A stretch of 64,000 nucleotides of DNA from Candidatus Iainarchaeum sp. (GTDB lineage Archaea > Iainarchaeota > Iainarchaeia > Iainarchaeales > JAZDDZ01), in the NCBI GenBank assembly GCA_043809245.1, contig JAZDDZ010000008.1, forward strand, positions 21,278-85,277, written 5' to 3'. Both the position numbers and the translations under genes were made by a program. Under the pieces are notes generated by a model. It worked only from the letters and a program-made list of their open reading frames with translations, searched no databases and had not been told where the DNA came from. The first letter of the stretch is position 1. Each line of letters starts with the position of its first letter. This document shows positions 8,285-34,868 of this stretch, in pieces.

Positions 8285-9007
8285 TCACCCCTTTTTTATT
8301 GCAGTAATAATGTGGGGCCAGAAAAAATTGATAAAGTTATCCAAGGTTTTTATTTCGCGAATTTTTTGCGCTCTAGCCTCTCGCAATTCTGTATCACGCA
8401 TTGCTAAAGCCTCTTTTAGAAGATCTTCTTTTACGGCCCTCAAATATGCTTGTTGGGATTCCGCGCTGCGAAGATGGCCTGTCGGACTGCGCCAGCTATT
8501 AATTTCAGATATTACTGCGCTTATCTCCCCCCCTAATCCATGATTTAAACTATGCAATTCCATTTTATTTAGAGGTCTTGCTCGCACATCAAACCCTGCT
8601 TTGCGAAGTTTTTTTTCCAGAACCTGTATCTCCGGTGTCGTTTGTAGCCACGAAAATTCTCCATTTGGTATAAGCACCCTTTTTATTTGATTAATTGCAC
8701 TGTGGATTTTTTCAGATGACAAATCATAGAGAAAAAATTCCGCACTAAATTTTCTGACGCTATTTTCTTTCATGCGAGGTAAACAATCAAGCACGTCAGC
8801 CGTTGCAAGTCTTAGGTTCTTTGCCCTCTGCGAGGGATTCATCCTTGCAGCATCCAAAGCAAGAAAATTTCCTTGCTTCATTAAAGCTTTATGCGTTAAC
8901 CTTTTCGGGTCAGGGCCTGAACCCAATTCAATTTCATCCCAAACAATTTGCTGTTTTGGCGATTCTGGTTTAAATGGCTTTCTGAAATGCATACATGAAG
9001 CAATCAA
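8285..9007 (-). CDS. Divergent class I SAM-methyltransferase-like ORFan
   Basis: ELGSG motif I, FLALD, ADVLD.LP, IKRVLIPNGEF; start may be MHFRK (8992). Confidence 0.6.
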   Translation of the reverse strand: MIASCMHFRKPFKPESPKQQIVWDEIELGSGPDPKRLTHKALMKQGNFLALDAARMNPSQRAKNLRLATADVLDCLPRMKENSVRKFSAEFFLYDLSSEKIHSAINQIKRVLIPNGEFSWLQTTPEIQVLEKKLRKAGFDVRARPLNKMELHSLNHGLGGEISAVISEINSWRSPTGHLRSAESQQAYLRAVKEDLLKEALAMRDTELREARAQKIREIKTLDNFINFFWPHIITAIKKG

Positions 9008-9058
9008 ACCAAATTCTTTTATATTCTTTCACCCCCATCTCTAATTGGAGGCGAGGTT

Positions 9059-11533
9059 TTGGCTAAAGGCATTGAGGCTTATCTGAAAAAAACATCGGTT
9101 AAAGTGGACAGGGAAATCGCAAAAATTTTCCCGAAAAAAATCTCAGGCAAGTGGCTTGAATTCTCACTTGGCAAAGCCATTTACGCTTATGACGCTGAAA
9201 CCGTCAGCAACTCAATTGCTTCCCCGATATGGGATTTATTGCGCCGCGGCGGAAAACGGTGGAGGCCGGCGCTTATGCTTTTATGCAATGAAGCACTGGG
9301 CGGAAGCGAAAAAAACGCCTTGCATTTCACTGTTTTGCCCGAACTGGTGCACAACGGCTGCTTGTCCGAAGACACCGTAATTTGGATGGCTGACGGAACG
9401 CCTCGAAAGATTACGGATGCAAAGGAGGGGGAATTTGTTCTTTCCGTGGGAAGCGATTTCCGGATAACTGAAAGGAAGATTGAGAAATTCCACGATAATG
9501 GAGAAAAGCCAACGCTTAGAATTAAAACTGACCACAGGGAAATCATTGCGACAGGGGAGCACCCTGTTCTTGTCGTTTCAAAGAAACAGCCAGTGCGATA
9601 TAAAATCACGAAAAGCGGAAAGGCGCTAATCCAACAAAAATTATTTGAGGCAGATTTGACTATTTCGGAATTCTGTGACAAGATCTCCAAGGAAATCAAA
9701 ACAGACATGCATCCGAAGGCACTTAAGAATAGTTTTTACGGGTATTCAAACTGTTTGATTCCGTTACGTATTGCAGATTATGTCAGTGCGATGTTTTCCT
9801 TGGATAAGAAGGACCTGTTTAATGAGACGCAATGCCAGTTTGATAAAGCGGAAATAATTTTTTCTTGGAAAAAAGCAAGCGAATTGCGCCAAGGGGACTT
9901 TGCAGTCATTGCGAAACAATCATTCTTCGGGAGTCCCAAGGTGCCAGAATTGGGTGCCTTTGAAAAAAACTGCAAAGACAGGTTCCGAATGCCAAAAGAG
10001 TTTTCGCCTGAGCTCGCCCAGCTCTGCGGCTTTTTAGTTGGAGATGGGTGCATCCAGCTGAACTATAATGGGGGAAAAGTTGATTTTTGCGTGCCGAAAA
10101 ATGGCGCAGGAAGAAAAGAGTATGAGTCACTGATAGAAAAAGTGTTTGGCGCAAAGCCTTATCTGGGCGAAGGCTCTGTAACTATGTGTTCAAAAGCGGT
10201 TGCAGAATTGTTTATTGGTTTGGGCTTGAAAGCGAAATGTACCGAAAAGAGCCTCCCAAATTGGGTTTATTCTTTGCCTCTAGAATATAAGAGGGCGTTC
10301 GTGAAAGGTTATATAGACGCTGATGGCACTGTTACAAAAACAGGCATAACGCGGTTTGGCTGTGCAAATAGGTTGCTAATGGAGGAATTAAAGTTTTTGC
10401 TTGATGGCATGGGCTTTCTTACTACAAATATCTGCGAAAAAAGGGTTAGCAACGAGCATTTTGGAGAAAGAGCAAAGAAAAAAGAGACAATTCTTTACTG
10501 CTTTGAAATGGGCCAACGAGAAAAAGTATTGCAAGAAATTGGTTCGGAAATCGCATTTTACAAAACAAGGCTGGGAATGCAGGCTCAAAGAATGGTGCAA
10601 CTGAGATTCAGAGATGCAATCCCTTCCCTGCCTGAATCGTTCGACCGCGAACATCTCGGATTTGAAAAAATAAGAAAAATAGAAAACGCTGGAACAAGGA
10701 AAACCTTTGACTTGCAAATAGAAGGAACGCACAACTATGTTTCCAATGGAATTATAACGCACAATACGATAATGGCTGATGACATTGAGGACTGCAGCGA
10801 ACTGCGGAGAGGCAAGCCGTGCACGCACCTTGTTTTCGGGGAAGACATTGCAATCAATGCGTCCAACACGCTTTACTTTCTTCCGTTGATTTTGCTGTAC
10901 CGCAACACGCAAAAGCTTGACGAAAAAACGCGCAGGATGATTTACGATGTTTACTCTGAGGAAATGCTGCGCGTTTCAATCGGGCAGGGAATGGACATTT
11001 ACTGGCATCGCGGCAAGAAAAAAAATGTAACGGAAAAACAATACCTGCAAATGTGCTCTTATAAGACCGGGGTGCTTGCGCGTTTTGCGGCAAAACTTGG
11101 CGCGATTCTCGCGGGCGGAACGCAAAAACAGATTGAGGCACTGGGAAAATTCGGTGAAACAATCGGCGTCGCCTTCCAGATTCAGGACGATGTCTTGAAC
11201 CTGAGCAGCAAAAAATTTGCGAAAGGAAAAGGCCTGGGAGAAGACATCAACGAGGGAAAACGCTCTCTTATCATAATCAAAACGCTTGAACGCGCCACTG
11301 CTGCGGAAAAAAAGGAATTGCTGAAAATCCTTGACTCCAAAAAGACGTCAAAAAAGCAAATCAACCGCGCGCTTTCAATCATCAAAAAATACGGTGCGCT
11401 GGATTACGCGCGGAAAAAAGCGCAAAAAATCGTTAAGGAAAGCTGGAAGCGCGCTGAAAAAGTGCTGCCGGAATCGCACGCGAAAAAACTGCTGAAAGAA
11501 TTCGCTGACTTCCTTGTGGAGAGGGAGATTTAA
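9059..11533 (+). CDS. idsA: Polyprenyl (geranylgeranyl) diphosphate synthase interrupted by an intein
   Basis: GGKRWRP, ELVHNG|TIMADDIED..ELRRGKP, GQGMDI, KTG, AFQIQDD, GEDINEGK; spliced length about 355 aa. Confidence 0.92.
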   Translation: MAKGIEAYLKKTSVKVDREIAKIFPKKISGKWLEFSLGKAIYAYDAETVSNSIASPIWDLLRRGGKRWRPALMLLCNEALGGSEKNALHFTVLPELVHNGCLSEDTVIWMADGTPRKITDAKEGEFVLSVGSDFRITERKIEKFHDNGEKPTLRIKTDHREIIATGEHPVLVVSKKQPVRYKITKSGKALIQQKLFEADLTISEFCDKISKEIKTDMHPKALKNSFYGYSNCLIPLRIADYVSAMFSLDKKDLFNETQCQFDKAEIIFSWKKASELRQGDFAVIAKQSFFGSPKVPELGAFEKNCKDRFRMPKEFSPELAQLCGFLVGDGCIQLNYNGGKVDFCVPKNGAGRKEYESLIEKVFGAKPYLGEGSVTMCSKAVAELFIGLGLKAKCTEKSLPNWVYSLPLEYKRAFVKGYIDADGTVTKTGITRFGCANRLLMEELKFLLDGMGFLTTNICEKRVSNEHFGERAKKKETILYCFEMGQREKVLQEIGSEIAFYKTRLGMQAQRMVQLRFRDAIPSLPESFDREHLGFEKIRKIENAGTRKTFDLQIEGTHNYVSNGIITHNTIMADDIEDCSELRRGKPCTHLVFGEDIAINASNTLYFLPLILLYRNTQKLDEKTRRMIYDVYSEEMLRVSIGQGMDIYWHRGKKKNVTEKQYLQMCSYKTGVLARFAAKLGAILAGGTQKQIEALGKFGETIGVAFQIQDDVLNLSSKKFAKGKGLGEDINEGKRSLIIIKTLERATAAEKKELLKILDSKKTSKKQINRALSIIKKYGALDYARKKAQKIVKESWKRAEKVLPESHAKKLLKEFADFLVEREI
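9359..10765 (+). mobile_element. LAGLIDADG homing-endonuclease intein (469 aa) in polyprenyl synthase
   Basis: Starts CLSEDT; block B ATGEHP; GFLVGDG and KGYIDADG; ends TFDLQIEGTHNYVSNGIITHN followed by +1 Thr. Confidence 0.95.
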
Positions 11534-30127: not shown

Positions 30128-30505
30128 ATGGCCCTGCGCTTTCCCTGTGAAATGATTGGATGGTATGTACTTCCTGCCGTGAGAAGCGAGCTTGTGGGCT
30201 ATCTTGTTGAGAAAAAAAAGCTGAGCAGGAAGGATGTGGCGAAAAGGATCGGATTGACTGAGGCAGCGGTATGCCAGTACCTCGGAAAGAAAAGGGGAAA
30301 GAGATTCAAGTTTTCCAAAAAAGAGCTTGGATTGATTAAAGAGCTTGGGGAAAGCATTGCGGAAGCGGAAAAAAGGCCTGAACTCACATTCCTTTCAGGC
30401 ACTTGCGCCTTGTGCAAGGAAGTCAGAAAAGAAAAGGCGCTCTGCAGGATCCATAAAATAGAGGACACTGGGCTTTCCGGATGCAACATTTGCTTTGATG
30501 CTTAA
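30128..30505 (+). CDS. Cys-rich HTH transcriptional regulator (COG2522-like)
   Basis: PCE....VLPAVR, HTH GLTEAAVCQY..KKRG, C-terminal CxxC, LC.IH, CxxC. Confidence 0.82.
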   Translation: MALRFPCEMIGWYVLPAVRSELVGYLVEKKKLSRKDVAKRIGLTEAAVCQYLGKKRGKRFKFSKKELGLIKELGESIAEAEKRPELTFLSGTCALCKEVRKEKALCRIHKIEDTGLSGCNICFDA

Positions 30506-30515
30506 AGGTGGAAAA

Positions 30516-31745
30516 ATGAAAAAGATTTACATGGACCACGGTGCGACAACGCCATTGGATGAGCGTGTGCTTAAGGAAATGAAGCCATATTTTTCGGATA
30601 AATTCGGAAATGCCTCTTCACTGCATTCATTCGGAAGGGAGGCAGCCGCGGCATTGGAGAAAAGCAGGCAAACAATTGCAAAGGCATTGAACGCTGAGAC
30701 GAATGAAATTATTTTCACCAGCGGGGGCACTGAAAGCGACAACATCGCGTTGAAGGGAGCTGCTTACGCGAACAAAAGCAAAGGCAACCACATCATAACT
30801 AGCGCGATAGAACATCATGCTGTTATTTACACATGCCAGCAGCTTGAAAAAGAAGGTTTTGAGGTAACATATCTTCCTGTTTCAAGGGACGGGCTGGTTG
30901 ATGTTAGGGATTTGGAAAAGGCAATCACTGATAAGACGATTCTTGTTTCCATAATGCACGCAAACAACGAAATCGGCACAATCCAGCCTGTGAAAGAAAT
31001 CGGAGTTTTGTGCAGGGAAAAGGGGGTTTTATTTCACACTGATGCAGTGCAGAGCTTTGGCAAGGTTCCAATTGACGTGAAAAAAATGAACATTGGCCTT
31101 CTCTCGGTTTCCGCGCACAAAATTTACGGGCCTAAAGGAGTGGGCGCGCTTTACCGAAGAAATGGCACGAATGTGAAAGCGCTTTTTCAGGGCGGAAGCC
31201 ACGAGTTTCGCTTGAGGCCTGGAACTGAAAACGTTGCGGGAATTGTTGGATTGGCTAAGGCATCCGAGCTGGCGCAAAAGGAAATGAAAAAAGAAGGGGA
31301 AAGGCTTTCAAAGATGAGGGACAAATTGATTGCGGGAGTTCTTGAATCAGTTGGGTCCTCGCATTTGAACGGCCATGCAAAGAAAAGGCTGCCGAACAAC
31401 GCAAATTTTTCATTTGACTTCATTGAAGGTGAAAGCCTTTTGATGTTATTGGATGGAAAAGGAGTCGCGGCTTCAACCGGAAGCGCTTGCAGTTCAAAGC
31501 AATTGAAGCCATCGCATGTTTTGACCTCAATCGGCTTGAGCCATGTTCAGGCGCACGGCTCCTTGAGGCTGACTTTGGGAAAAAGCAATTCAATGAAAGA
31601 CGTTGATTATGTGTTAAAGGTTTTGCCGCCTATTGTGAAAAAGCTCAGGAGTTACAGCCCGCTGCAGAAAGGGAATGTTGTTGAGTTTGAGAAAATGGAG
31701 GCGGAAGAAGGCCATGGCCATGAACACGAGCATTTGGAGGAGTGA
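30516..31745 (+). CDS. iscS: Cysteine desulfurase (IscS/NifS)
   Basis: YMDHGATTP, FTSGGTESDN, SAHKIYGPKG, TGSACSS; His-rich C-terminal tail. Confidence 0.96.
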   Translation: MKKIYMDHGATTPLDERVLKEMKPYFSDKFGNASSLHSFGREAAAALEKSRQTIAKALNAETNEIIFTSGGTESDNIALKGAAYANKSKGNHIITSAIEHHAVIYTCQQLEKEGFEVTYLPVSRDGLVDVRDLEKAITDKTILVSIMHANNEIGTIQPVKEIGVLCREKGVLFHTDAVQSFGKVPIDVKKMNIGLLSVSAHKIYGPKGVGALYRRNGTNVKALFQGGSHEFRLRPGTENVAGIVGLAKASELAQKEMKKEGERLSKMRDKLIAGVLESVGSSHLNGHAKKRLPNNANFSFDFIEGESLLMLLDGKGVAASTGSACSSKQLKPSHVLTSIGLSHVQAHGSLRLTLGKSNSMKDVDYVLKVLPPIVKKLRSYSPLQKGNVVEFEKMEAEEGHGHEHEHLEE

Positions 31746-31748
31746 ATT

Positions 31749-33278
31749 ATGTACCCGAAACAGGTAATGGATGAATTCAGGCACCCAAAAAATCTTGGGG
31801 AAATAAAGAACGCAGATGCAATCGGAAAAGTGGGAAACCCGACCTGTCTTTTGCCTGATACAATTGTGCACGCCAACGATCATTTTGAAAGGATAGATTC
31901 GTTGAAAGAATCAGACCGCGTATTAGGGCACAATGGGCTTTACAACCAGGTGGAGGAAAAGTTTGCAAGGGCATATTCAGGCGAGCTTATTAAAGTCAAA
32001 AATAAGCTGGGCTGCACTTTTTTAACACCAGAGCATGAAGTATTCGCAGTAAGTGTGCCAAAAAGATGGAAGTTCACTTTCACGAAAAATAAGAAAGCGC
32101 TTTCGCCCCAATGGCTGCACGCGTATGAACTAAAGAAAGGTGATATGGCTGTTTTGCCGGTGCTTAAAGAAGTTGAAGATAAACAATTTATGGAAGTAAA
32201 GCAGGAAAGAAAAAGATTTGATTACAGAAGTAAAAAAATTCCTGAAAAAATTACGGTTTCCGAAGAATTCCTTAGGCTTTCAGGATATTACCTGGCGGAG
32301 GGCTCTTTGAAAGAGAAAATCACGAAAACATATGTTTGCTTCACTTTTAACTCAAATGAAGAAGAACTTGTTAAAGATGTTGTGGATATAACCGCAAAAA
32401 TATTCGGGTTAGAAGCAAAAGTTCATACAATTCCGCAGAGAAAAACTACTCGCGTGACAATCAATAATATCTGGGTTACAAGGCTATTCAAATCGCTGTT
32501 TGGAAAAGGGGCTGCTGAAAAAAAGCTTCCGCACTGGATGATCCTTCTGCCCCTAGCAAAACAGAAAAGCATTATTTTAGGTTTGTGGAGAGGCGATGGA
32601 TTCTTTAACCAGAAAAAGCCAAGGGCAGGATATTCAACGGTCTCACATCAGCTTGCTCTGCAGATAAAGACCCTTTTGCTGCGCCAAGAAATAGTGCCCT
32701 CAATTTACACAGAAAAAGAAAAAATCTCAAAAGACGGAGTAAAGCACAGGAAGGCATACCGAATACATGTAGGCGATAGAAAATCTGTCGAGAATCTGGC
32801 AAAAATTCTTGATTTAGAACTGAAAACTATAAAACCAGTTTTAATCGATTCATGGTTTAGCAAGGGCATGCTTTTTATTCCAATAAGCGGAATAGAAAGA
32901 ATAAATTACGAAGGCAAAGTGCATAACCTCAAAGTCGAAAATGCCATGTCTTATGTAACTGAATCCCTTACTGTGCACAACTGCGGCGACTTGCTCTGGG
33001 TTTACCTGAAAATAGGGAAAAACAAAAAAGGAAAAGAAATAATCAAGGACATTAAGGTTAAAACATTCGGTTGCGTTGTTGCAATCGCAAATTCAAGCCT
33101 TTTGACTAAAATGGTTAAGGGAAAAACAATTGAATTCGCGGAAAAGCTCACAAAACAGGATTTGCTGAAAAAGCTCGGAAAAGTGCCTGCAATAAAGGTG
33201 CATTGTTCAGTGCTTGCGGTTGACGGATTGCAGAACGCGTTAAAGGATTACAGGGAAAAAAAGGGGAAAGGAAAATGA
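31749..33278 (+). CDS. iscU: Fe-S scaffold IscU/NifU-N interrupted by an intein
   Basis: MDEF.HPKN.G...GNPT|CGD, FGCVVAIA, KVHCS.LA; spliced length about 130 aa. Confidence 0.93.
   Translation: MYPKQVMDEFRHPKNLGEIKNADAIGKVGNPTCLLPDTIVHANDHFERIDSLKESDRVLGHNGLYNQVEEKFARAYSGELIKVKNKLGCTFLTPEHEVFAVSVPKRWKFTFTKNKKALSPQWLHAYELKKGDMAVLPVLKEVEDKQFMEVKQERKRFDYRSKKIPEKITVSEEFLRLSGYYLAEGSLKEKITKTYVCFTFNSNEEELVKDVVDITAKIFGLEAKVHTIPQRKTTRVTINNIWVTRLFKSLFGKGAAEKKLPHWMILLPLAKQKSIILGLWRGDGFFNQKKPRAGYSTVSHQLALQIKTLLLRQEIVPSIYTEKEKISKDGVKHRKAYRIHVGDRKSVENLAKILDLELKTIKPVLIDSWFSKGMLFIPISGIERINYEGKVHNLKVENAMSYVTESLTVHNCGDLLWVYLKIGKNKKGKEIIKDIKVKTFGCVVAIANSSLLTKMVKGKTIEFAEKLTKQDLLKKLGKVPAIKVHCSVLAVDGLQNALKDYREKKGKGK
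31845..32981 (+). mobile_element. LAGLIDADG homing-endonuclease intein (379 aa) in IscU
   Basis: Starts CLLPDT; block B LTPEHE; GYYLAEG and GLWRGDG; ends VHNLKVENAMSYVTESLTVHN followed by +1 Cys. Confidence 0.95.
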
Positions 33279-34171
33279 AAATCGCGGAAGACGTAATAGG
33301 CCTCATTGGGAACACTCAGATGGTCCGCATCAACGGGCTTAACCCGAACAAAAATGTTTCCATTTATGCAAAGCTTGAGGGAAACAATCCCGGCGGAAGC
33401 ATCAAGGACAGGATTGCGCTTAAGATGCTTGAACAGGCGGAAGCAGAGGGAAAACTAAAGAAAGGCAAGACAATCATTGAGCCGACCTCTGGCAACACGG
33501 GCATCGGGCTCGCGATGATAGGCGCAATAAAAGGCTATCCCGTTGAAATAGTGATGAGCGAAGCGGTTTCCATTGAAAGGAGGAAAATGATTCAGGCATT
33601 TGGGGGAAAAATTTTGCTGACTGACGCAAAGCTTGGCACTGATGGCGCGATAATGAAGGCAAGGGAGCTGGTGAGAAAGAATCCTGAAAAATACTTTATG
33701 CCGGACCAGTTTTCCAATGAATACAACAAGATAGCCCACTATAAAACGACTGCGGATGAGATCTGGAGGCAGATGGAGGGAAAAATTGATTACTTTGTTT
33801 CCGCGATAGGCACTTCAGGCACGATAATGGGGGTTGGAAAATATTTGAAGGAAAGAAACCCTGACATCAAAATTGTTTGCGCCGAGCCAACCAAAGGGCA
33901 TTACATTCAGGGGCTCAAAAACATGCAGGAAGCAATTGTCCCCACTATTTATGACGCTTCAAAGATTGATGAAACAATTATGGTGGAAACCGAGACCGCG
34001 TTTGAAACCGCGAGAAAAGTCATAAAAGAAGAGGGGCTTTTTGTCGGCATGAGCTCTGGCGCTGCAATGTACGCTTCAATGGAAATCGCCAAAAAAATAA
34101 GGAAGGGAACAATTGTCACAATTTTTGCGGACAGGGGAGAAAAGTACCTTACAACGAACTTGTTCAAGTAA
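33275..34171 (+). CDS. Cysteine synthase (CysK/CysM family)
   Basis: KLEGNNPGGSIKDR, EPTSGNTG, GTSGT, GMSSGA, DRGEKY. Confidence 0.93.
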   Translation: MKIAEDVIGLIGNTQMVRINGLNPNKNVSIYAKLEGNNPGGSIKDRIALKMLEQAEAEGKLKKGKTIIEPTSGNTGIGLAMIGAIKGYPVEIVMSEAVSIERRKMIQAFGGKILLTDAKLGTDGAIMKARELVRKNPEKYFMPDQFSNEYNKIAHYKTTADEIWRQMEGKIDYFVSAIGTSGTIMGVGKYLKERNPDIKIVCAEPTKGHYIQGLKNMQEAIVPTIYDASKIDETIMVETETAFETARKVIKEEGLFVGMSSGAAMYASMEIAKKIRKGTIVTIFADRGEKYLTTNLFK

Positions 34172-34217: not shown

Positions 34218-34868
34218 ATGGGCGAAAGGATTTTATGGGAAGACCGATATCCCCTAGCAAACCTAGTTTATTTGATAGCCGCGCTAGTTGTTTTAGCTTT
34301 AGTGTCAGCAGCACTAATAAGTACTGCAATTTTCAGATACAATGACGTGTCAACCGGCAAAACATTTTATTATCAAGGAAGAACCATAACAATAGCGCCC
34401 GAAATTGAAGATTTGCAGCCGTCAACCGCTTTGGTATTTTTTGTTTTATTGGCAGTTATAATAATTTGCTTGGGTTGTTTTGTTTATACAGCCATGTTCT
34501 TGGGCCACATCCTGCTTTTTTTTGAAGAATTTAAAATTCGCGTTGCGGAAAATTCGCTGATTCTCGGCTCATCACTCTTTTTCCCGAAAAAAATAATCGT
34601 TCCATTTAAAGGCATTAAAGAAATAGAATTTACTTCACTTGGCAAATTAAATAAAACAATAGCCGACTTGGCAGCAGTGGAAAAATTTTTTGCACCTATA
34701 ACCAAGTTAATAGGAACCTATACAGGCGGTAACGAATCAATTAGCCAGCTTCGGTTTCTGCAAATTACCACCCAAGAAAAAACCATAATGCGGGGGATAC
34801 TTGACTCCAAAAGTTTTATAAGAAAAATTCCCGAAATAGAAAACATTAAAATAAAAATAAGTGATTGA
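34218..34868 (+). CDS. Hypothetical membrane protein, possible PH-like C-terminal domain
   Basis: Two TM segments, IVPFKGIKEI pattern. Confidence 0.6.
   Translation: MGERILWEDRYPLANLVYLIAALVVLALVSAALISTAIFRYNDVSTGKTFYYQGRTITIAPEIEDLQPSTALVFFVLLAVIIICLGCFVYTAMFLGHILLFFEEFKIRVAENSLILGSSLFFPKKIIVPFKGIKEIEFTSLGKLNKTIADLAAVEKFFAPITKLIGTYTGGNESISQLRFLQITTQEKTIMRGILDSKSFIRKIPEIENIKIKISD

Follow-up and report, generated by a model that had tools for sequence, protein, structure and literature searches.

How is an iron-sulfur (Fe-S) cluster built in a cell whose scaffold protein is interrupted at one of its own cluster-site cysteines, and does the interruption serve the cell or only itself? The question is raised by a locus of Candidatus Iainarchaeum sp. 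(assembly GCA_043809245.1, contig JAZDDZ010000008.1, positions 21,278 to 85,277 of the forward strand), a stretch of 64,000 nucleotides referred to here as the window and numbered from its first letter. On the plus strand of the window, at 31749..33278, a single open reading frame (ORF) of 509 amino acids plus stop encodes the scaffold protein IscU in two parts, with an intein of 379 residues between them. A sequence-only reading of the window had described this arrangement and proposed that the intein acts as a post-translational switch on Fe-S biogenesis. We conclude that the element is very probably a splicing-competent, selfish class-1 intein, maintained by homing and equipped with a two-motif LAGLIDADG endonuclease, which sits in iscU between GNPx and CGD.

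Anatomy of the intein-split IscU

The intein-split IscU is confirmed at 31749..33278, and its anatomy goes far beyond what chance would produce. The checked translation holds N-extein, intein and C-extein in one open frame, and the order at the junctions is ...GKVGNPT/CLLPDT...TVHN/CGDLLW..., where the slashes mark the two splice sites. The N-extein (amino acids 1–32, 31749..31844) ends in GNPT and comprises the N-terminal helix and first strand of IscU, the intein occupies amino acids 33–411 (31845..32981) as judged by profiles, alignment and model, and the C-extein (amino acids 412–509, 32982..33275, then the stop) starts at the +1 cysteine, C412 of CGD. Within the intein, a HINT splicing domain in two parts (approximately amino acids 33–150 and 371–411) flanks the LAGLIDADG endonuclease (approximately 151–370). 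The sequence and fold features of a class-1 intein are present: the N-terminal splicing nucleophile Cys1 (C33, codon at 31845..31847), a TxxH block B in the form TPEH (T93 to H96, 32025..32036), the penultimate histidine and terminal asparagine (H410 and N411, 32976..32981), the +1 cysteine and, in the structure model, the HINT fold. The two LAGLIDADG helices, at amino acids 177–186 (32277..32306) and 276–285 (32574..32603), each close on an acidic residue, E184 and D283 respectively, as expected of an endonuclease of this family. The C-extein also carries the remaining conserved residues of the IscU site, D414, C442, H485 and C486, and the set of three cysteines, an aspartate and a histidine is thus complete in the exteins.

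The 509-residue ORF matches Pfam NifU_N in two stretches (E 5.5e-33, 114 bits against a cut-off of 22) and LAGLIDADG_3 in two stretches (E 6.8e-17), with a further match to Hom_end (E 2.2e-6), and several NCBIfam intein-containing models match its middle. The NCBIfam models for NifU and IscU score below their cut-offs (TIGR03419, 128 versus 187.9; TIGR01999, 98 versus 192.4) because the gene is split. When the ORF was aligned by phmmer to the uninterrupted IscU of Archaeoglobus fulgidus (4eb5_C; E 3.4e-28), the N-extein corresponded to residues 1–32 and the C-extein to residues 33–123, placing C412 opposite Cys33, an established cluster ligand. The earlier claim that the +1 nucleophile is also the first conserved cysteine of the IscU cluster site is borne out by this alignment.

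An AlphaFold2 model of the precursor, built from an alignment of 33 relatives, has a mean predicted local distance difference test (pLDDT) score of 89.4 and a predicted template modelling (pTM) score of 0.79. The leading Foldseek matches are all endonuclease-bearing inteins, with TliVMA (7qsu, E 3e-24) first, followed by PhoVMA, PI-SceI, PI-PkoII and PI-PfuI, and the modelled C-extein superposes on known IscU structures (4eb5_C, 96 columns, root-mean-square deviation 1.6 A). The 379-residue intein with two LAGLIDADG motifs, splitting IscU at GNPT/C...HN/CGD, is confirmed as it had been read from the sequence.

Conservation among relatives

A protein search with the 509-residue ORF returned 432 hits at E <= 1e-5, and the conservation counts that follow refer to the best 120 of these. 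All 120 carry both PF14528 and PF01592, are 46–65% identical to the query and span 462–554 amino acids; in the source databases they are named merely 'iron-sulfur cluster assembly scaffold protein' or 'NifU-like'. The splicing residues Cys1, T93, H96, H410, N411 and C412 are invariant (120/120 each), as are the extein residues G29, N30, G413, D414, C442 and C486, and H485 does not vary in the alignment of 33 rows. The acidic residues of the endonuclease are kept almost as strictly, E184 in 119 and D283 in 118 of the 120, with G179, G185, W280 and G282 of the same motifs present in every one. Intein length is 376–382 amino acids in 119 of the relatives. Measured against the query, the endonuclease part averages 0.52 identity and the exteins 0.54–0.59, the C-extein standing at 0.54. 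The invariance of the splicing residues points to purifying selection on splicing. In the same alignment no cysteine of the intein besides Cys1 is conserved: C89 and C197 of the window intein have no conserved counterpart, and the two columns that are partly cysteine, 351 and 408, hold alanine and threonine in the window copy.

Patchy distribution at a fixed site

When 185,579 species were scanned, each through a single genome, 194 stretches were confirmed to encode a relative, of which we kept the 80 that each span essentially the whole precursor. By their titles these loci belong to Iainarchaeum (the nearest, 59–65% identical), Nano-, Woese- and Pacearchaeota, Aenigmat-, Micr-, Alti- and Undinarchaeota, Methanomethylicota, Thermoplasmatota and Asgard groups; many others (among L063, L081-L139) have bacterial titles, which name Patescibacteria groups, Omnitrophota, Elusimicrobia, WOR-1 and Planctomycetia. 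Bacterial and archaeal titles are interleaved in the intein tree, and one branch starred 100 brings together eight rows: five labelled with bacterial phyla (two Omnitrophota, and Nealsonbacteria, Elusimicrobia and Planctomycetia) and one each of Saccharibacteria, WOR-1 and Thermoplasmatota. Several of these titles are automatic labels of genome bins that look unreliable in the tree; a Woesearchaeota row, for example, is separated by 0.02–0.06 substitutions from one titled 'Methanosarcinales'. Two explanations offer themselves, passage of the iscSU pair with its intein across domains or wrong labels on the bins, and we claim no transfer between domains.

Within the phylum the intein is patchily distributed. 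NifU_N is found in 191 of 215 genomes and is interrupted by the intein in 13 of the 191 (G000, G008, G011, G015, G036, G039, G063, G069, G077, G153, G165, G170 and G175), the remainder having an uninterrupted match. Genera g4, g6, g17, g29, g51 and g70 each include genomes with and without it; in g6, for example, G011 and G015 have the intein, and G012, G013 and G016 have none. Where it occurs, it occupies the same codon boundary, in the window and in all 11 other loci with a readable N-junction. All 18 intein-less alleles read as an uninterrupted G...CGD, 17 of them as GNxxCGD and the last (L040) as GSAACGD, which fits only the looser pattern. The consensus DNA at the site is identical for the intein-bearing and intein-less classes, and 17 of the intein-less alleles match the flanks of the window intein (-15..+15) at 16–23 of 30 bases, which makes them candidate homing targets.

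Independent history of intein and host gene

Across the 7140 pairs formed by the 120 proteins, extein and intein identities are uncoupled (Spearman rho 0.058), and individual pairs depart in both directions: the exteins of P0091 and P0115 are almost identical with inteins only ~62% identical, and the inteins of P0077 and P0079 are ~76% identical with exteins at ~48%. Base composition also sets the intein apart, at a GC content of 0.391 (0.385 at third codon positions, GC3). The neighbouring iscS has 0.461 (GC3 0.505) and the genome as a whole 0.444, and a value as low as that of the intein is reached in only 6.5% of 2866 windows across the genome. Patchiness, uncoupled history and low GC are marks of a homing mobile element, and point to short spans of vertical descent with frequent gain or loss.

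Relatives of the intein in other hosts

A query with the intein alone retrieved 226 cluster representatives at E <= 1e-30, and 63 of the best 80 were scanned with Pfam. NifU_N was present in 14 of these. The next nearest hosts were thioredoxin-reductase-like proteins (8), in which the intein lies at ..CAT/CD.., and beta subunits of oxoacid:ferredoxin oxidoreductases (4), with single cases in ferredoxin, S19, methyltransferases, UDP-glucose dehydrogenase, GcpE, a radical-SAM enzyme, terminase and DnaG. In a FastTree phylogeny of 55 inteins those of IscU form one group, which the oxidoreductase inteins adjoin. SufB of the same phylum has been invaded too: SUFBD_core lies in frames of 811–1623 amino acids in at least 12 of the 78 genomes that bear it, and the three such ORFs that were read (L141-L143, corresponding to G146:C4, G177:C3 and G010:C54) have the junctions ..EG/C...HN/CTAP... 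The inteins in SufB ORFs are 29–36% identical to that of IscU. No genome was seen to hold both the IscU and the SufB intein, and SUFBD_core, found in 78 genomes of the phylum, is missing from all 13 that carry the IscU intein. This separation is not an independent association, because the families with the intein mostly lack SUF anyway. Lodging before a conserved, functional-looking cysteine is a habit of this group of inteins and is therefore not specific to IscU.

The iscS-iscU-cysK operon

Directly upstream of the split gene, at 30495..31745 on the plus strand, lies iscS/nifS, encoding a cysteine desulfurase of 416 amino acids (Aminotran_5, E 4.9e-88; TIGR03402 NifS, 574.7 bits against a cut-off of 530.75), whose stop falls 4 nucleotides ahead of the iscU start. 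Downstream, the start of a cysteine synthase gene, cysK/cysM (33275..34171, plus strand), overlaps the iscU stop in an ATGA. The pairing with IscS is widespread: in 66 of the 80 loci an IscS homologue precedes the IscU that holds the intein, and in 50 the two are directly adjacent. The cysK neighbour was found in 1 of the 80 and is not conserved.

The IscS of the window ends in a tail rich in histidine and glutamate (alternating H and E/G; window 31701-31742, plus strand), which follows the conserved desulfurase domain and may bind metal. A small protein is encoded directly upstream of iscS (window 30152-30505, plus strand; longest frame from 30071). It carries a helix-turn-helix (HTH) domain (0.95 in the Atlas score to archaeal HTH_3 clusters, but only E 0.027 in Pfam) and a C-terminal CxxC...C...CxxC motif, has a homologue in 10 of the 80 related loci, and is a candidate for a regulator that controls the operon by sensing Fe-S or metal. 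Downstream of cysK, a frame of 216 amino acids (window 34218-34868, plus strand) has hydrophobic N-terminal segments and no Pfam family.

The assembly to which the window belongs comprises 1.48 Mb in 55 contigs and is 91.8% complete. A search of sequencing runs listed one DNA run, with a 0.06 share of the searched words, and no RNA run. Profile searches of it found a single NifU_N gene, the iscU of the window, and one strong cysteine desulfurase. They found no SUFBD_core, for which the control profile was positive in 14/14 reference genomes, nor any A-type carrier (Fe-S_biosyn), HscB (HSCB_C) or second IscU. A SUF pathway as a backup Fe-S system was considered and rejected, there being no SUFBD_core match in the 91.8%-complete assembly. 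With an adjacent IscS-IscU pair, no ISC accessory proteins and no SUF found, the locus fits the concept of a minimal IscS-IscU (MIS) system (PMC12192291). The MIS-type setting proposed at the outset thus stands.

Intein load of the genome

The IscU intein is one of many in this organism. LAGLIDADG_3 matches number 29, spread over 21 frames, and at least 16 genes bear an intein. Besides iscU, 15 other frames join LAGLIDADG to a host protein: RadA, CDC48, Lhr, two HerA, the A and B subunits of the A-ATPase, FttA, SMC, two T2SSE ATPases, the PolD small subunit, an epimerase/dehydratase, DNA ligase and a polyprenyl synthetase. For a genome of 1.48 Mb this load is very high. The last of these hosts provides a second intein in the window, within a frame of 844 amino acids at 8999-11530 on the plus strand (synthetase, E 2.6e-63, with Intein_splicing and LAGLIDADG_3), whose HN/T junction lies near amino acid 588. 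The inteins listed from RadA to DNA ligase, together with the frames that have no host domain, are on contigs C7, C10, C13, C16, C23, C24, C42, C44, C47, C48, C49 and C51 of the genome (G000); four LAGLIDADG frames of 316–382 amino acids without a host domain all lie on C47.

Discussion

The pathway that we propose would begin with translation of the 509-residue precursor from the iscS-iscU-cysK operon. C33 would attack the peptide bond ahead of the intein, the N-extein would pass to the thiol of C412, cyclisation of N411 would free the 379-residue intein, and an S-to-N shift would leave a native peptide bond in GNPT-CGD. The predicted product is an IscU of ~130 residues whose first conserved cluster-site cysteine is the former +1 nucleophile. 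It had been argued earlier that the scaffold is inoperative until spliced; the argument is sound, and as no other scaffold was found, Fe-S assembly would depend wholly on splicing. Once free, the intein would cleave DNA site-specifically, at the same codon boundary of intein-less iscU alleles, and repair of the cut allele would copy the intein in. We expect splicing to be constitutive. The element would owe its persistence to horizontal spread and to the cost of its loss, since an imprecise deletion would destroy an essential cysteine codon and with it the only Fe-S scaffold, and not to any benefit to the host.

Several points weigh against this reading. The Pfam Intein_splicing match (E 1.7e-6, 28.4 bits) falls under the curated cut-off of 35.8. 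The sample is tilted towards intact endonucleases, both by taking the best-scoring 120 of 432 hits and by the genome scan, one of whose two patterns was the second LAGLIDADG motif. Shorter inteins do occur, of 332, 346 and 313 amino acids, and mini-inteins would be hidden by the length restriction of the search and by the score ranking. The exteins yield only ~126 columns, which makes pairwise identities noisy, and above 80% extein identity the inteins do become more alike, with a mean of 0.71–0.75, which makes inheritance over the short term vertical. Finally, an endonuclease conserved to the same degree as the host protein could reflect recruitment for a host function, and splicing may be conditional as well as selfish.

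Of the alternatives, the most probable is the switch envisaged in the sequence-only reading. According to this, splicing is adaptively conditional: a C33-C412 disulfide, binding of Zn, Cu or Fe, or persulfide transferred from IscS would block both thiols and so gate the supply of mature IscU. Both nucleophiles are indeed cysteines, and a block would strike all Fe-S assembly, IscU being the only scaffold found. In the modelled precursor the C-extein is already IscU-folded, so that C412 could join a pre-formed site with C442, C486, D414 and H485. There is precedent: the SufB intein of M. tuberculosis is reported to be highly sensitive to reactive oxygen and nitrogen species, and the DnaBi1 intein to form a reversible disulfide trap (PMC6195587); oxidative and nitrosative stress reportedly inhibit SufB splicing (PMC6195587, PMC8891592). 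General chemistry makes it likely that an intein with Cys1 and Cys+1 is sensitive to oxidants or metals in vitro, but such sensitivity would not itself show regulation. The sequence signs expected of selected regulation, a conserved partner cysteine and lineage-wide retention, are absent from the 120 relatives and the 191 genomes respectively: Cys1 is the only conserved intein cysteine, and the intein is present in just 13 of the 191 IscU-bearing genomes of the phylum and polymorphic within genera. Moreover, its history is uncoupled from that of the host gene, it is one of many in the genome, its relatives precede functional-looking cysteines in many unrelated hosts, which marks the position as a site choice of the intein, and the upstream HTH protein is a simpler candidate for a regulator. 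The proposal of a switch, though chemically plausible, finds no support in the patchy distribution, the lack of an extra conserved cysteine, the uncoupled history or the abundance of inteins in the genome, and we consider it unlikely.

A more specific version, suggested by the structure model, is that Fe or Zn binding or sulfur loading by IscS at the pre-formed C412/C442/C486/D414/H485 site would remove the thiol needed for trans-thioesterification, giving substrate feedback on maturation of the scaffold. We rate this as quite unlikely. If true, the same feedback logic could hold for the related inteins that precede cysteines of SufB, of the oxoacid oxidoreductase beta subunit and of thioredoxin-reductase-like proteins in small anaerobes.

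Domestication offers another explanation for the strength of conservation. The intein or its endonuclease might have acquired a host function, for example in DNA binding or in a chaperone-like role for the precursor, and this would be in keeping with an endonuclease whose identity to the query (0.52) is close to that of the C-extein (0.54), with acidic residues kept in 118–119 of 120 relatives and with a nearly constant intein length. It is exactly the catalytic acidic residues that are retained, however, which points to nuclease activity; patchy presence (13/191) and uncoupled phylogeny fit ongoing homing, and the sample is biased towards intact copies. Domestication therefore seems very unlikely to us.

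That the insertion is dead, with a non-splicing intein, an iscU pseudogene and clusters supplied by a host or by a system missing from the assembly, is improbable in the extreme: organisms of this kind are often host-dependent, and at 91.8% completeness a second scaffold could lie outside the assembly, but the frame is open over 509 amino acids, all splicing and cluster-site residues are intact and invariant in 120 relatives, the model is confident (pLDDT 89.4) and iscU is translationally coupled to iscS and cysK.

A selfish homing intein thus remains the reading that best accommodates the data. As such it would be an intein of the ordinary kind whose host protein and insertion site appear to be undescribed. 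A widely catalogued site would, according to the sequence-only reading, have removed the novelty; the sequences are abundant in public data, and a published description was not found. No paper on an IscU or NifU intein emerged from literature listings and abstracts, which did not extend to intein databases such as InBase. The main text of the intein survey by Novikova et al. (PMC4760082) contains none of the words 'iron', 'Fe-S' or 'scaffold' and cites SufB in its reference list only, and its supplement may list hosts.

The interest of the system lies in an essential process, Fe-S assembly, for which the only scaffold found must arise by protein splicing, with a +1 residue that doubles as a cluster-site cysteine. 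As a sequence-rich setting, comprising 80 full-length loci in species genomes and at least 120 protein clusters, it lends itself to testing whether conditional splicing operates on the IscS-IscU pathway; the case for such splicing has so far been made chiefly with mycobacterial SufB and DnaB. It also allows an intein to be followed as it apparently moves among very small archaea and perhaps, by the submitters' labels, some bacteria. Should splicing be constitutive, IscU would provide a clear example of inteins lodging at residues that the host cannot afford to change.

Comparison with known systems

Among solved structures, the inteins TliVMA (7qsu/7qss), PhoVMA (7qst), PI-SceI (1vde), PI-PfuI (1dq3) and PI-PkoII (2cw7) have the same architecture as the IscU intein, with a two-motif LAGLIDADG endonuclease set between the two parts of a HINT domain (Foldseek E 3e-24 to 1e-12; target-normalised template modelling score 0.46–0.75). 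They differ from it in sequence, with 13–19% identity, and in their hosts, which are ATPases, polymerases or reductases and in no case a metabolic scaffold. On the side of the exteins, the IscU proteins of Archaeoglobus fulgidus (4eb5) and Methanothrix (7c8m) align over their full length and have the same fold and the same pairing with IscS, but are uninterrupted.

The nearest relatives outside IscU are the inteins of 2-oxoacid:ferredoxin oxidoreductase beta subunits (P0130, P0145, P0147 and P0148), which are 32–42% identical to that of IscU and of which we know of no description. Here too the host is an Fe-S protein, and the +1 cysteine is presumably a [4Fe-4S] ligand. The host and the context on the N-terminal side are different: the N-junction is WCPG/ in all four. 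In P0130, P0147 and P0148 the intein is followed by /CGD, as it is in IscU. For P0145 there is no HN/C junction, the match ending at intein residue 366. The shared /CGD may stem from a jump of the intein between two Fe-S proteins whose target sequences are alike.

The closest functional parallel is the SufB intein of M. tuberculosis, which likewise interrupts a scaffold of Fe-S assembly and whose Cys1/Cys+1 chemistry we take to be that of the IscU intein. It differs in its host, SufB rather than IscU, and in its site, and the effects of stress on it are experimental, whereas the IscU intein is known from its sequence. The role of the +1 residue in the mature protein also differs: in SufB this cysteine is presumably a sulfur-relay residue, and in IscU it belongs to the scaffold's own set of cluster-binding cysteines.

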